A stretch of DNA of 64,000 nucleotides from Escherichia phage SF, in sequence record MH359124, one strand, 5' to 3'. Positions 5,492 through 63,912 of this stretch are shown here, piece by piece (the first letter of the stretch is position 1; every line of letters starts with the position of its first letter). The translations under genes and the position numbers were made by a program. The notes beneath the pieces are model-generated. The model saw only the letters and a program-made list of their open reading frames with translations. It was not told the origin of the DNA and ran no database searches.

Positions 5492-5521
5492 GTTTACATC
5501 TTCCTCTAGGCATGATATGAT
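5492..5521 (+). promoter_or_regulatory. Early sigma70-type promoter
   Basis: GTTTAC, 18-nt spacer, TATGAT; drives ORF 5551. Confidence 0.55.
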
Positions 5522-5925: not shown

Positions 5926-5954
5926 GTTTACTTCTCCAGTAGTTGTGTTATGAT
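5926..5954 (+). promoter_or_regulatory. Early promoter with stem-loop (PeSL-like)
   Basis: GTTTAC, 17 nt, TATGAT; -10 enclosed by IR CCAGTAGTTG/CAACTACTGG (5936..5972); drives ORF 5981. Confidence 0.65.
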
Positions 5955-5980
5955 AGACCTATCAACTACTGGAGAACAAA

Positions 5981-6298
5981 ATGAAAACCATCGACTGTAA
6001 AGCAGAATTTAAGATTTTTTATCACGGATCAAGTAGTTCAGCTAACATAGAAAATATGCTTTGTCCTCCTGAGGAAACAGGAGTTCTGTCTGAAACTGGA
6101 CGTAAGAAAAACTTGGATCGTGTATTCTTTACTGAAGATATCGGTTTAGCAAAGATTTATGCAGGACGAGCAGCACGCTCTTGTGGAGGTGAACCACGTC
6201 TCTATCGAGTAATTTCTCCGGTAGACGTAGTTCAAATGAATAATACTAAAGGTGCTACAGTTTATCACGCTGAATGGGCATTTTGCGAGGAAATATGA
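5981..6298 (+). CDS. Hypothetical protein, possible minimal ADP-ribosyltransferase (Arr-like) fold
   Basis: 105-aa ORF; N-terminal FYHGS motif and later hydrophobic Y-x-V-x-SP segment reminiscent of Arr-family; weak, unverified. Confidence 0.55.
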   Translation: MKTIDCKAEFKIFYHGSSSSANIENMLCPPEETGVLSETGRKKNLDRVFFTEDIGLAKIYAGRAARSCGGEPRLYRVISPVDVVQMNNTKGATVYHAEWAFCEEI

Positions 6299-7237: not shown

Positions 7238-7267
7238 GTTTACATTATAGATGGACTATAGTATAGT
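7238..7267 (+). promoter_or_regulatory. Early promoter (PeSL-like)
   Basis: GTTTAC, 18 nt, TATAGT inside IR GGACTA..TAGTCC; drives sp. Confidence 0.65.
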
Positions 7268-11421: not shown

Positions 11422-11622
11422 ATGATGCCTATTCCTGATACACACGAAAAAAGTTGGGAATATATCGGTGACGGAATGATGGAAGAAGTTGTTCGTCCAA
11501 AAACAAAACAGGTTAATGCTTCAAGCTCTTCAAGTTATAATCATTCATACGTATCATCTTGGCCTGGTGATTCCGGGTCAAGTTATTCTGATTGTGGTTC
11601 AAGCTCAGGGAGCTGTGAATGA
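11422..11622 (+). CDS. Hypothetical Ser-rich small protein
   Basis: In-frame ATG of ORF 11299..11622 just after the previous stop. Confidence 0.45.
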   Translation: MMPIPDTHEKSWEYIGDGMMEEVVRPKTKQVNASSSSSYNHSYVSSWPGDSGSSYSDCGSSSGSCE

Positions 11623-13907: not shown

Positions 13908-13981
13908 CTGGATTGGAATAACCGGATGGAACTCAGAACCATTATAACACATAAAAAATTAAAGCATTTTACGAAAAAAGT

Positions 13982-18630: not shown

Positions 18631-18659
18631 GTTTACTTCTCCTCTGGTTTTGATATTAT
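18631..18659 (+). promoter_or_regulatory. Early promoter (PeSL-like)
   Basis: GTTTAC, 17 nt, TATTAT flanked by IR CCTCTGGTT/AACCAGAGG; drives ORF 18686. Confidence 0.65.
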
Positions 18660-18685
18660 AACCATATCAACCAGAGGAGAATAAT

Positions 18686-19210
18686 ATGTTAGTTTACCGC
18701 GTAGAACGTAGTTTTTGTACTCAACGTGAATCATTACCAGGAATTGCTATCGAAGACGGTAAAGCCGTCAGAATTTGGGAAACCTCTTGGAATAAAGAAC
18801 CTCGTTCGCCATACGGTTGGTCGGGCACCGACAACTCTGAAGAAACATGGGAGTTCCTTGATAAGCATGGAATACTCTCAGGTAACTTCTACCATCATGG
18901 CGACAACTACAATGTCTCTAATCGTCCTACAGTAAATGAAGACAAACTCCTTGAACAAAATATCTTAAGATACTATAGAATTGAGCACACATTTGAATTG
19001 AGTGAAGATTGGGCTCAAGGGTTCTATTTTGGATTTGAAAGTGTTGACGCGGTTTATGCATGGTTTGATGACCAGGTGGATGTTGAACTCTTGAAAGCTA
19101 AAGGATACTACATAGCGGTCTATGAAGCACCTGATTTCATCCTCGGAAGTTGTCAATTAATGTTTAGACGTTCATTGGCAGAACAAGTTGATTTTATTTT
19201 GCTAAAATGA
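18686..19210 (+). CDS. Hypothetical protein
   Basis: 174-aa ORF with own promoter and AGAGGAG SD. Confidence 0.6.
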   Translation: MLVYRVERSFCTQRESLPGIAIEDGKAVRIWETSWNKEPRSPYGWSGTDNSEETWEFLDKHGILSGNFYHHGDNYNVSNRPTVNEDKLLEQNILRYYRIEHTFELSEDWAQGFYFGFESVDAVYAWFDDQVDVELLKAKGYYIAVYEAPDFILGSCQLMFRRSLAEQVDFILLK

Positions 19211-29471: not shown

Positions 29472-30797
29472 ATGCAATTGAATTCTCGTAATCTAAAAAG
29501 TATTATTGATAACGAAGCCTTAGCATATGCGATGTACACCGTTGAAAACCGTGCAATCCCAAACATGATTGATGGATTTAAGCCGGTTCAACGTTTTGTG
29601 GTTCATCGTGCGTTAGATTTGGCTCGTGGTAATAAAGAAAAATTTCATAAACTTGCGTCAATTGCAGGCGGTGTTGCAGATTTAGGTTATCACCATGGTG
29701 AATCTTCTGCACAAGATGCAGGTGCATTGATGGCTAACACATGGAACAACAACTATCCACTGTTAGATGGCCAAGGCAACTTTGGTTCTCGAACAGTCCA
29801 AAAAGCTGCAGCATCTCGTTATATTTTTGCTCGTGTAAGTAAAAATTTCTATAACGTATATAAAGATACTGAATATGCTCCAGCTCATGAAGATAAAGAA
29901 CACATTCCACCAAAATTCTATCTTCCTATTATTCCAACAGTTCTTTTGAATGGCGTCTCTGGTATTGCAACCGGTTACGCAACAAATATTCTGCCTCATA
30001 GTTTTAAATCAGTCAAAAAGGCTGTATTACAAGCTCTTCAAGGTAAAAATGTCACTAAGCCAAAAGTTGAATTCCCGGAATTCCGTGGTGAAGTACATGA
30101 AGTTGATGGGCGTTATGAGATTCACGGAACATATAAGTTCACATCCCGAACTCAAATGCAGATAACTGAAATCCCATATAAATTCGACCGTGAAACGTAT
30201 GTGAGTAAGGTTCTTGACCCATTGGAAGACAAAGGTCTAATCTCATGGGAAGATGATTGTGGTGAACACGGCTTTGGGTTTAAGGTGAAGTTCCGTAAAG
30301 AGTACTCGCTTCCTGATGATGAAGAGCTACGTCATGAAAAAATCATGAAAGATTTTAGTCTCATCGAACGTCGTTCGCAAAACATCACAGTGATTAATGA
30401 AAAGGGTAAATTAGCGGTCTATGATAACGTAGTGGACTTAATCAAAGATTTTGTTGAAGTCCGTAAGACTTATGTTCAGAAACGTATTGACAACAAAATC
30501 CTTGAATCTGAAAAAGCATTTAAACTGGCTTTTGCTAAGGCACACTTCATCAAAAAAGTTATTACAGGTGAAATTGTGATTCAGGGCAAGACTCGTAAAG
30601 CTTTGACTGAAGAGCTAGCACAAATCGAAATGTATAAAGAACATGTCGATAAACTGGTAGGCCTTAACATCTTCCATATCACTTCCGACGAAGCACGTAA
30701 ACTAGCAGAAGAAGCTAAGGCTAAGAAAGAAGAAAATGAGTATTGGAAGTCTACTGATGTTGTGACAGAGTACACTAAAGACTTGGAGGCACTTTGA
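29472..30797 (+). CDS. 52: DNA topoisomerase II medium subunit (GyrA-like)
   Basis: 441-aa ORF; GyrA N-terminal motifs; matches T4 gp52 size and N-terminus. Confidence 0.95.
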   Translation: MQLNSRNLKSIIDNEALAYAMYTVENRAIPNMIDGFKPVQRFVVHRALDLARGNKEKFHKLASIAGGVADLGYHHGESSAQDAGALMANTWNNNYPLLDGQGNFGSRTVQKAAASRYIFARVSKNFYNVYKDTEYAPAHEDKEHIPPKFYLPIIPTVLLNGVSGIATGYATNILPHSFKSVKKAVLQALQGKNVTKPKVEFPEFRGEVHEVDGRYEIHGTYKFTSRTQMQITEIPYKFDRETYVSKVLDPLEDKGLISWEDDCGEHGFGFKVKFRKEYSLPDDEELRHEKIMKDFSLIERRSQNITVINEKGKLAVYDNVVDLIKDFVEVRKTYVQKRIDNKILESEKAFKLAFAKAHFIKKVITGEIVIQGKTRKALTEELAQIEMYKEHVDKLVGLNIFHITSDEARKLAEEAKAKKEENEYWKSTDVVTEYTKDLEAL

Positions 30798-30872
30798 GTG
30801 CCCTAGCCTTAGGATTTCTCGGTGCAATAGCTGCACTAGTGATTTGGCTGTATTGGTTGGACAAACATGATT

Positions 30873-30896
30873 AGGGAGCTTCGGCTCCCTTTTGTG
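30873..30896 (+). terminator. Rho-independent terminator after gene 52
   Basis: GGGAGC-TTCG-GCTCCC then TTTTGTG. Confidence 0.7.
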
Positions 30897-30916
30897 CATT
30901 TTTTTCTCACAAAACA

Positions 30917-30945
30917 GTTTACTTTTGCTTCAAACATGATATTAT
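30917..30945 (+). promoter_or_regulatory. Early/middle promoter cassette
   Basis: GTTTAC, 17 nt, TATTAT, with embedded TTGCTTCA MotA-box-like element; drives the motA.1-like gene. Confidence 0.65.
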
Positions 30946-30984
30946 AGACCTATCAAAACAAAACAACCAAATTGGAGAAATAAA

Positions 30985-31200
30985 ATGTCTAAAATGAAAT
31001 TAACCCAAAACACAACTACTCGTTTCGGTAAAGTTAAACCTGGTATGAATGCTCCCCGTAAAGCACTTGTTGAAGAATTAAATTTCTTAGAAGTTGAAAT
31101 CAATTCTTTAGTGGTTCGCGGTTCAAATGGACATCATTTAGAAAAGCTTCGTTCTAAAAAGGCAAAACTTATTGGCCTTATTAAAGAAATGAGTTTGTAA
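30985..31200 (+). CDS. MotA.1-like small basic protein
   Basis: 71-aa ORF between 52 and motA. Confidence 0.55.
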   Translation: MSKMKLTQNTTTRFGKVKPGMNAPRKALVEELNFLEVEINSLVVRGSNGHHLEKLRSKKAKLIGLIKEMSL

Positions 31201-31238
31201 ATTTTACCAGGGCTTTTGGAAAAAGAGCCCAAAATAAA

Positions 31239-31267
31239 GTTTACTTTTGCTTCAAACGTGATATTAT
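31239..31267 (+). promoter_or_regulatory. Early/middle promoter cassette
   Basis: Near-identical copy of the 30917 cassette; drives motA. Confidence 0.65.
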
Positions 31268-31304
31268 AGACCTATCAAAACAAATACTAATTTGGAGAAA
31301 TAAA

Positions 31305-31937
31305 ATGTCTAAAGTTACTTACATCATCAAAGCTTCTGAAAACGCTCTGAATGAAAAAACTGCTGCAATAATGGTTTATGTCATTAAGAACAACTTCACC
31401 ACGGCTGCCAATGTCCGTGAAGCTCTGGAAGCGGAATACAATGCATCGGTTGTTAACTCTAACATTGGTGTATTGATTAAGAAAGGTTTAGTCGAAAAAT
31501 CCGGTGATGGACTTGTAGCAACAGGCGAAGCAATGGATATTATCCAAAAAGCTGCAGACCTCTTTGCCCAAGAAAATGCTCCAGAACTTCTTCAGAAACG
31601 TAACACTAGAAAAGCACGTGGAGTTACTCCTGAAATGCACGAATTAGCGAACTTTGTTTTTGAAAATATTAAAGATAAAGTTGAAGTTAAAGAAATTGGT
31701 GAAAACCGTAGTAACTTGGAAGTTCGATTTGCAAAACGAGTTCTAGGTATTCGTCAGATCGAAATTCGTCGAAATGGTTCTCTTAGAATCTTTGCATACA
31801 ACATGTCAGAAACTGAATCAAAGCTGTTTACTTCTCTTGAAAATGATGTTAAGATTAAGATCGGTGGTAAATATACATACATTGACTTCCCTAATGTGTC
31901 CAAAGAAATCATTACCCTTGTAACTAACGTACTGTGA
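31305..31937 (+). CDS. motA: MotA middle-transcription activator
   Basis: 210-aa ORF; MSKVTYIIKAS...VVNSNIGVLIKKGLVEKSGDGL matches T4 MotA. Confidence 0.9.
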   Translation: MSKVTYIIKASENALNEKTAAIMVYVIKNNFTTAANVREALEAEYNASVVNSNIGVLIKKGLVEKSGDGLVATGEAMDIIQKAADLFAQENAPELLQKRNTRKARGVTPEMHELANFVFENIKDKVEVKEIGENRSNLEVRFAKRVLGIRQIEIRRNGSLRIFAYNMSETESKLFTSLENDVKIKIGGKYTYIDFPNVSKEIITLVTNVL

Positions 31938-63476: not shown

Positions 63477-63505
63477 GTTTACTTTGGTACAGGTTTTGTT
63501 ATTAT
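63477..63505 (+). promoter_or_regulatory. Early promoter (PeSL-like)
   Basis: GTTTAC, 17 nt, TATTAT inside IR GTACAGG..CCTGTAC; drives ORF 63547. Confidence 0.65.
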
Positions 63506-63546
63506 AGACCTGTACCAACAAACAACTTAAACATCTGGAGAATAAA

Positions 63547-63912
63547 ATGAACTACATCAACTTTGAACGCAAATATGTTTCTAACGGTATCGCCGGTTCT
63601 ATTGATACGATTTGCTTATGGAAACATAAAAATGGTTCAGTATGTGAAATTGAGCAGTATATGACTCCTAATTACGTTTATATGCGATTTGAAAATGGCA
63701 TCACGGTTTCAATCACAATGGACGGTTCCAACTTCAAAATTGCATTAGATGACGATTTCCGTCAACGTGATTTAGGTACTCATCCTTGCTGGAATGGTGA
63801 TAATCGTAAACTTCTGGTTAAAACTTGGATTCGTCATATCCTGAGTAACCGAGCTAAACCTGAACATCTCGAAGCAATCTTTGATGTAGTTCTTAACGAA
63901 TTCGATATCTAA
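63547..63912 (+). CDS. Hypothetical protein
   Basis: 121-aa ORF with own early promoter; terminator downstream. Confidence 0.6.
   Translation: MNYINFERKYVSNGIAGSIDTICLWKHKNGSVCEIEQYMTPNYVYMRFENGITVSITMDGSNFKIALDDDFRQRDLGTHPCWNGDNRKLLVKTWIRHILSNRAKPEHLEAIFDVVLNEFDI

Follow-up and report, generated by a model that had tools for sequence, protein, structure and literature searches.

Why should the same promoter, leader, ribosome-binding site and first codons stand twice, in direct orientation, in front of two different genes of a T4-type phage? The question arises at the motA locus of Escherichia phage SF (sequence record MH359124), in the 64,000-nucleotide (nt) stretch of DNA analysed here, which we call the window. 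There, two repeats precede ORF71, a gene for a protein of 71 amino acids (aa), and motA, which encodes the activator of middle-period transcription. Promoter-early stem-loop (PeSL) cassettes have been described in T4-type phages (Arbiol 2010, PMC2839356; Comeau 2014, PMC4122927). We suggest that the repeats are tandem regulatory cassettes of this type, which bracket the accessory gene ORF71 and serve as portable homology for deletion, homogenisation and cargo swap. We consider this reading about 85% probable.

Two copies of one early-promoter cassette

The region is about 98-99% identical to Mosigvirus genomes (RB69-like, Tevenvirinae), with BEU50, APCEc01, HX01 and JS09 as the best matches. 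The order along the plus strand is gene 52, a tiny hydrophobic open reading frame (ORF), hairpin 1, repeat copy 1, ORF71, hairpin 2, copy 2 and motA. A repeat search detects the similarity in two parts that are set apart by a 2-nt indel. The first is 55 nt long with 93% identity (30908-30962 and 31230-31284, spacing 322), and the second is 37 nt long (30957-30993 and 31277-31313, spacing 320). Measured from GTTTAC to the end of the start block ATGTCTAAA, copy 1 has 77 nt (30917-30993) and copy 2 has 75 nt (31239-31313). In their alignment 71 of 77 columns are identical, with four mismatches and one 2-nt gap, and the starts lie 322 nt apart. The initial annotation had reported direct repeats before both genes at this distance, and its coordinates are right. 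Both copies close with an exact block of 22 nt, TTGGAGAAATAAAATGTCTAAA, which covers the Shine-Dalgarno sequence, ATG, TCT and AAA.

Repeat search, promoter match and pairwise alignment delimit the full cassettes at 30908..30993 and 31230..31313, both on the plus strand. Each consists of an upstream hairpin, an A-rich, UP-like tract, the -35 element GTTTAC, a 16-nt spacer, TG, TATTAT, a short leader, GGAG and ATG. In copy 1, the A-rich tract (30908-30916) is followed by GTTTAC (30917-30922), a MotA-box-like sequence TTTTGCTTCA (30923-30932), TG (30937-30938), the -10 element TATTAT (30940-30945), a predicted +1 near 30952, GGAG (30974-30977) and ATG-TCT-AAA (30985-30993). In copy 2, the A-rich tract is followed by GTTTAC (31239-31244), the same MotA-box-like TTTTGCTTCA (31245-31254), TATTAT (31262-31267), the leader, GGAG (31294-31297) and ATG-TCT-AAA (31305-31313), and codons 1-3 of motA are thus part of the repeat. 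Both copies fit the T4/RB69 early-promoter consensus (PMC1524935, PMC2988021), reading TTTACT-N16-TATTAT with TG upstream of the -10, with the A-rich sequences CACAAAACA and CAAAATAAA upstream and the Shine-Dalgarno sequence and start TTGGAGAAATAAAATG at the 3' end. In each copy ACC stands immediately before the predicted start and an A-rich leader follows, which is unstructured in RNA folding (z +0.4 and +0.9). This leader is length-polymorphic among relatives: G53 (L016 ~745-760) shows an expansion of the A-run, CAAAAAAAAAAATAC, and p000v (L007 ~560-575) has an extra AAAAC, which suggests slippage between the -10 and the Shine-Dalgarno sequence.

Promoters of one family share a consensus, and the similarity of the two copies has to be read against this background. 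We compared all pairs of the 13 T4-type early-promoter cassettes on the plus strand of the window, which have in common GTTTAC, TG, TAtnAT, CCTATCAA, and GGAG with an A-rich ribosome site. The other 77 promoter pairs have a mean identity of 57%, a maximum of 74% and a best alignment score of 31. The pair at the motA locus, in contrast, reaches 88% over 89 nt including the upstream flank, with a score of 66, and its identity does not fall to background once the copies are properly aligned. In the whole window there are exactly two occurrences of the 34-nt promoter core and exactly two of the 22-nt block, against expectations of 0.00 and 0.01 from shuffled sequences. The similarity of the copies is well above chance and above the consensus of the promoter family.

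Some of the other early promoters have features of their own. Those at 5492, 5926, 6927 and 7238 (plus strand) form four cassettes in 1.8 kb, each preceding a small ORF, a dense tandem layout that the PeSL papers link to hyperplastic regions. At 5926-5995, 18631-18700 and 63477-63560 (plus strand), and more weakly at 7238 and 57354, the spacer is complementary to the leader or Shine-Dalgarno sequence of the same promoter, and the RNA hairpins formed have -20 to -24 kcal/mol (z -3.4 to -5.9). A structure of this kind would mask the ribosome site only in read-through transcripts from upstream and not in locally started ones. In both cassettes of the motA locus this spacer-leader hairpin was looked for and is absent.

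Loss, exchange and replacement of the unit among relatives

Comparison of copy number in related genomes, the check that had been proposed for the repeats, gives two cassettes in 74 records and one in RB69, mar005P1, F2, p000v and others. An 801-nt query aligns at full length (798-802 nt) in the 74 records; in RB69, mar005P1, F2, p000v and many others its alignment is split in two and covers only 479-484 nt, i.e., 801 minus 322. MotA is found with at least 95% identity in 152 records, compared with 74 for ORF71 at the same level. Judged from these alignments, about half of the Mosigvirus genomes, RB69 included, are without exactly one 322-bp unit. An assembly artefact is ruled out, as the same arrangement occurs in 74 independent records. 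Most records with two cassettes also show a second match place, which is likeliest the repeat matching its own other copy, and we do not use it as evidence for a third locus.

The junctions of these natural deletion variants lie inside the cassette blocks, and among the sampled loci, on which the junction types rest, there are two of them. In mar005P1, p000v, 348Ecol098PP and ESCO47, the copy-1 leader (AAAACAAAACAACCrAATTGG) is joined to motA at ATGTCTAAA, so that the crossover falls in the 22-nt block of Shine-Dalgarno sequence, ATG, TCT and AAA. In RB69, the copy-2 leader AAAACAAATACTAATTTGG follows the upstream region and spacer of copy 1, and the crossover thus falls within the promoter core. 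A crossover made in silico in the 22-nt block of the window reproduces mar005P1 at 233 of 236 positions. APCEc01, which carries ORF71, and mar005P1, which does not, belong to the same assigned species line and agree at 389 of 390 positions in the gene 52 tail and at 195 of 196 across the cassette. A 75-nt junction query covered 165 of 179 records; here megablast ran through the leader differences and the junction classes were not separated. In the mosaic 348Ecol098PP (L008 395-560), a tiny ORF and terminator of the Dhakavirus type, GGAACCTTCGGGTTCC, immediately precede a promoter and motA of the Mosigvirus type. This junction at the terminator and AT-rich tract points to the left edge of the cassette as another recombination point.

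Exchange between the copies has also left conversion variants. In NHEP11, 68 nt are identical in both copies, and this includes a copy-1 leader before motA. Copy 1 of the window itself carries TTTT, the spacer allele typical of copy 2, where most relatives have ATGT, ATAT or ACGT. The start of motA, ATGTCTAAA, is conserved in T4, Dhakavirus and Marfa, and Merlin has the synonymous ATGTCAAAA. ORF71 starts with MSK, again encoded by ATGTCTAAA, in Mosigvirus but with MNK in Dhakavirus, so the start block of motA appears to have been copied onto ORF71 in the Mosigvirus lineage.

The cargo between the cassettes can be replaced as well. Dhakavirus JS10 has an unrelated ORF of 75 aa between the same cassettes and hairpin. 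This ORF recurs with 95-100% aa identity in 138 records, those listed being mostly Tequatrovirus-like coliphages and Yersinia phages, and in the three genomes checked by coordinates, G4498, AV119 and VIPECOOM03, it precedes motA by about 110 nt. Between CTATCAA in the +1 region and ATGTCTAAA, the modules of JS10 and G4498 have about 99% nucleotide identity, and the left promoter and the codons of motA are each specific to the genus. For comparison, the Mosigvirus MotA encoded here shares about 69% identity with that of Dhakavirus and about 51% with that of T4-like phages. The slot between its conserved flanks, gene 52 on the left and motA on the right, is empty in T4 and is occupied by two small ORFs in Marfa and by three in Merlin. 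Recombination via the cassettes, which the initial annotation had offered as one possible origin of the repeats, is thus borne out by loss of the unit, junctions within the repeat, replacement of the cargo and transfer of the module.

The recombination machinery of T4-type phages, which is established (see also PMC1524935), would cross over between the two copies. The 322-bp unit that the crossover would excise consists of ORF71, hairpin 2 and one hybrid cassette, and it may leave as a mini-circle. Alternatively, one copy would be converted to the other, which gives homogenisation. During co-infection, cassettes of different phages may pair and the cargo be swapped.

Competing explanations and the age of the arrangement

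The alternative that survives best is that the duplication is kept mainly for regulation, with recombination as a side effect: two identical promoters in tandem would increase motA dosage through read-through, and MotA would shut off both its own early promoter and the one before ORF71 through TTTTGCTTCA. The missing U-run of stem-loop 2 fits this idea, as does the presence of a perfect MotA-box sequence in both spacers, conserved beyond the genus. At the early promoter the box TTTTGCTTCA is conserved in Mosigvirus, Dhakavirus and Marfa (Marfavirus) and partly in Merlin (Moonvirus), and it is absent in T4. The motif is also enriched in the window, with 24 occurrences against 9.2 expected. However, a single cassette suffices in about half of the Mosigviruses, which makes a second one dispensable, and MotA alone binds DNA weakly (PMC2988021). 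The position of the box is wrong as well. In a MotA-dependent middle promoter, the box (a/t)(a/t)(a/t)TGCTT(t/c)A precedes a TAnnnT -10 element at a distance of 11-13 bp (PMC1524935, PMC2988021), and the candidate middle promoters of the window, at 11515, 20530 and 42330 and at 13968 (minus strand), keep a distance of 12-13 nt. The TGCTTCA motif of the cassettes lies 7 nt from TATTAT, and we rejected it as a middle promoter. On balance, regulation as the main reason for the duplication is quite improbable.

A narrower idea is that the box in the spacer, being out of register for activation, allows MotA to block its own early promoter, either alone or together with AsiA. This is unlikely, though somewhat less so than the regulatory origin just discussed; the T4 transcription review searched holds nothing usable on MotA autoregulation. 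If it were true, the slot would be a plug-in position that gives incoming cargo a MotA-terminated pulse of immediate-early expression, and the first three motA codons together with the +1 block CTATCAA would be the shared docking homology for exchange between genera.

It could also be argued that the copies are alike merely as strong T4-type early promoters with optimal ribosome sites, i.e., by functional selection and not by exchange of DNA. The consensus parts common to all 13 early promoters of the window speak for selection, and so does the promoter core, of which 38 of 41 nt are kept between genera although the coding DNA is only about 72% identical. Selection of this kind does not account for a pair whose score is more than twice the best of the other 77, nor for the identity at non-consensus positions in spacer, leader and codons 2-3, nor for the identical leaders of NHEP11. 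It also leaves aside the natural variants that are without exactly one repeat unit and have their junctions inside the repeat. We regard selection on its own as a very improbable explanation.

The initial annotation had considered a recent duplication, and a simple tandem duplication of the motA 5' region, with ORF71 as by-product or new gene, would fit two close copies in direct orientation that include the first three motA codons, but it has hardly any probability left given that the arrangement is present in 74 independent records, that ORF71 has no similarity to MotA beyond MSK, and that Dhakavirus has the same two cassettes and an orthologous ORF71 which has diverged like its neighbours.

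This last point also dates the arrangement. Against Dhakavirus JS98, ORF71 has 71.8% nucleotide identity, motA 71.6% and the gene 52 tail 70.7%, and the ratio of nonsynonymous to synonymous substitution (dN/dS) is about 0.21 for ORF71 and about 0.25 for motA. ORF71 (30985..31200, plus strand) is therefore a real gene under purifying selection that was resident before the split of Mosigvirus and Dhakavirus. The equal divergence of the gene and its flanks favours an old two-cassette state followed by at least two later deletions in Mosigvirus, and the high identity of the copies seen here would come from later exchange between them.

ORF71 is found in 92 records, in Mosigvirus and Dhakavirus only and always at the gene 52-motA locus. 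It belongs to PHROG 6200 (phrog_6200), whose function is unknown, and a Pfam search gives no match. Searching 5.8 billion proteins with ORF71 returned 8 clusters, all of one narrow family. The product is predicted to be hydrophilic and helical: the AlphaFold model (pLDDT 80) has a basic disordered N-terminus and a generic helical hairpin with helices at 23-45 and 50-70, and a Foldseek search of this model against BFVD finds only its own orthologue.

Several observations weigh against tandem PeSL-type cassettes as exchange points, or at least limit the reading. RB69 separates the two simulated crossover products only weakly (226/234 against 224/234). In Dhakavirus ABTNLsp5 the cores of the two cassettes differ at three sites, so homogenisation is not universal, and the conservation of the promoter core between genera means that the identity of the copies is in part due to purifying selection rather than exchange. 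The blocks that hold the inter-genus breakpoints are 7-12 nt long, which is below the presumed need of classical homologous recombination. Stem-loop 2 is without a U-run, and the effective terminator of the original PeSL description is therefore probably missing from cassette 2. Finally, the sequences show the anatomy, the natural variants and the breakpoints within the cassette, and from them we infer promoter activity, cleavage by RegB, read-through, a mini-circle as intermediate and, for each event, its direction (deletion or insertion).

Expression, neighbouring genes and known systems

Both promoters would fire immediately after infection, each giving its downstream gene immediate-early transcription. 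Transcripts from promoter 1 probably also pass hairpin 2 into motA, because stem-loop 2 has no U-run. With the ribosome site common to both genes, GGAG with an A-rich sequence, translation should start alike on both messages, and sensitivity to the RegB nuclease is probably shared. A strong RegB/S1 site consists of GGAG followed by RAYARAA in an unstructured intergenic ribosome site (PMC3014915), and T4 motA RNA is a good RegB substrate (PMC1702504). In the cassettes, GGAGAAATAAA matches GGAG and five of the next seven positions of the consensus GGAGRAYARAA (PMC3014915) and is a predicted site. Both genes had been credited with identical expression signals. This holds closely for promoter, leader, Shine-Dalgarno sequence and the first three codons, which are near-identical, and equal expression of the two genes is a prediction from them.

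Stem-loop 1 with its T-run lies at 30873..30905 on the plus strand (hairpin 30873-30890; -14.8 kcal/mol, z -3.9). It reads AGGGAGC-UUCG-GCUCCCU, followed by the T-run TTTTGTGCATTTTTTT, and resembles an intrinsic terminator that closes the gene 52 transcription unit; it is at the same time the stem-loop of cassette 1. An equivalent hairpin and T-run are found in T4, RB69 and JS98, and relatives annotate a terminator there. The tetraloop (30880-30883) is TTCG in the window, APCEc01 and mar005P1, and the same stem carries the reverse-complement loop CGAA in RB69 (L005 ~480-483) and LF82-1 (L015), a flip of the loop within the palindrome. Stem-loop 2 (31210..31230, plus strand; -12.2 kcal/mol, z -2.5) reads GGGCUUUU-GGAAA-AAGAGCCC and is followed by AAAATAAAG; it is probably not an efficient terminator. 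A simple terminator scan of the plus strand calls neither hairpin. In Dhakavirus stem-loop 2 is GAGCUCUU-GAAA-AAGAGCUC, where the stem is kept by one change on both sides and one change from G-U to G-C, and on this comparison the structure is conserved through compensatory changes.

The neighbouring genes are readily identified. Gene 52 (29472..30797, plus strand), the medium subunit of DNA topoisomerase II, is an ORF of 441 aa (phrog_551, E 4e-217; PF00521), and motA (31305..31937, plus strand; phrog_1345, E 4e-90) encodes a product with the Pfam domains MotA_activ and MotCF (PF09114 and PF09158). The label "motA.1-like", which had been given to ORF71, is wrong. T4 motA.1 is a hydrophobic ORF of 49 aa that overlaps the gene 52 stop codon; ORF71 starts 188 nt past this stop, behind terminator and promoter, and a BLASTP comparison of ORF71 with T4 MotA.1 gives no alignment. 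A previously unlisted ORF of 26 aa, LSALALGFLGAIAALVIWLYWLDKHD, read and translated from the sequence at 30794..30874 (plus strand), fits better. Its TTG start overlaps the TGA of gene 52, with GGAGG 5 nt upstream, and ESCO47 has a homologue that starts with ATG; relatives often leave this ORF unannotated. In position and hydrophobicity, though not in sequence, we take it as the positional equivalent of T4 motA.1, as similarity between the 26-aa ORF and T4 MotA.1 is undetectable at the sequence level. At the same position Dhakavirus (JS98) has a different hydrophobic ORF of 34 aa and T4 has the 49-aa motA.1.

Among known systems, the PeSL cassettes are closest. Stem-loop, AT-rich tract, sigma-70-like early promoter, Shine-Dalgarno sequence and ATG are all present here, and the promoter fits the T4/PST-type consensus TTTACW...TAYWAT, albeit with a spacer of 16 nt where PeSLs have about 17. 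As in PeSLs, the small ORFs flanked by tandem copies have no known function and vary between close relatives, and the crossovers of deletions, replacements and insertions lie in the stretch from the -10 to the ATG, where those of the RB49/phi1 mini-circles have been mapped. The mini-circle was demonstrated for RB49/phi1 and is a possible intermediate here. Two further differences are that stem-loop 2 lacks the U-run and that the right-hand cassette drives the core regulator motA, with homology entering its first three codons. Neither PeSL paper (PMC2839356, PMC4122927) mentions motA; they treat RB49/phi1, PST/T4 and nt-1/KVP40 and not Mosigvirus. In the sequence features tested the locus is a PeSL pair, with doubtful terminator activity of stem-loop 2, and is a new and well-documented example of a known mechanism.

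An early promoter of T4 motA and a RegB-sensitive motA ribosome site are attributed to Uzan et al. 1990 as cited in PMC3014915. Like the cassettes here, the T4 promoter follows the terminator of gene 52/motA.1, and it has in common with them TTTTTTCACAAAAC(G/A)GTTTAC, GGAG and ATGTCTAAAGT. Unlike the locus here, T4 has a single cassette without a cargo gene; the T4 spacer is 1 nt longer and lacks TGCTT, and the leader sequence differs.

A comparison with the morons of lambdoid phages is also possible. Morons are ORFs that sit as insertions between conserved genes and bring along a promoter and a terminator of their own. ORF71 likewise forms a small autonomous expression unit between two conserved genes that is optional among relatives. 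However, it diverges between genera like its flanks and so shows no sign of foreign origin, and it is bounded by repeated phage regulatory cassettes and not by illegitimate junctions. The novel ORFs of T4-like phages have been argued not to be moron-like (PMC1524935).

The locus leaves the current understanding of the mechanism unchanged. Its distinction is that the right-hand cassette belongs to the core regulator motA, with homology reaching into the coding sequence, which makes it a convenient, clearly delimited place to put the PeSL mini-circle model to the test. Test genes could likewise be introduced here into Mosigvirus or T4 phages and placed under native immediate-early control. At this one position, public genomes keep the empty, occupied, homogenised, replaced and inter-genus-transferred states, with breakpoints readable to 7-22 nt, and together they document with unusual clarity how small accessory genes are shuffled in nature by T4-type phages.

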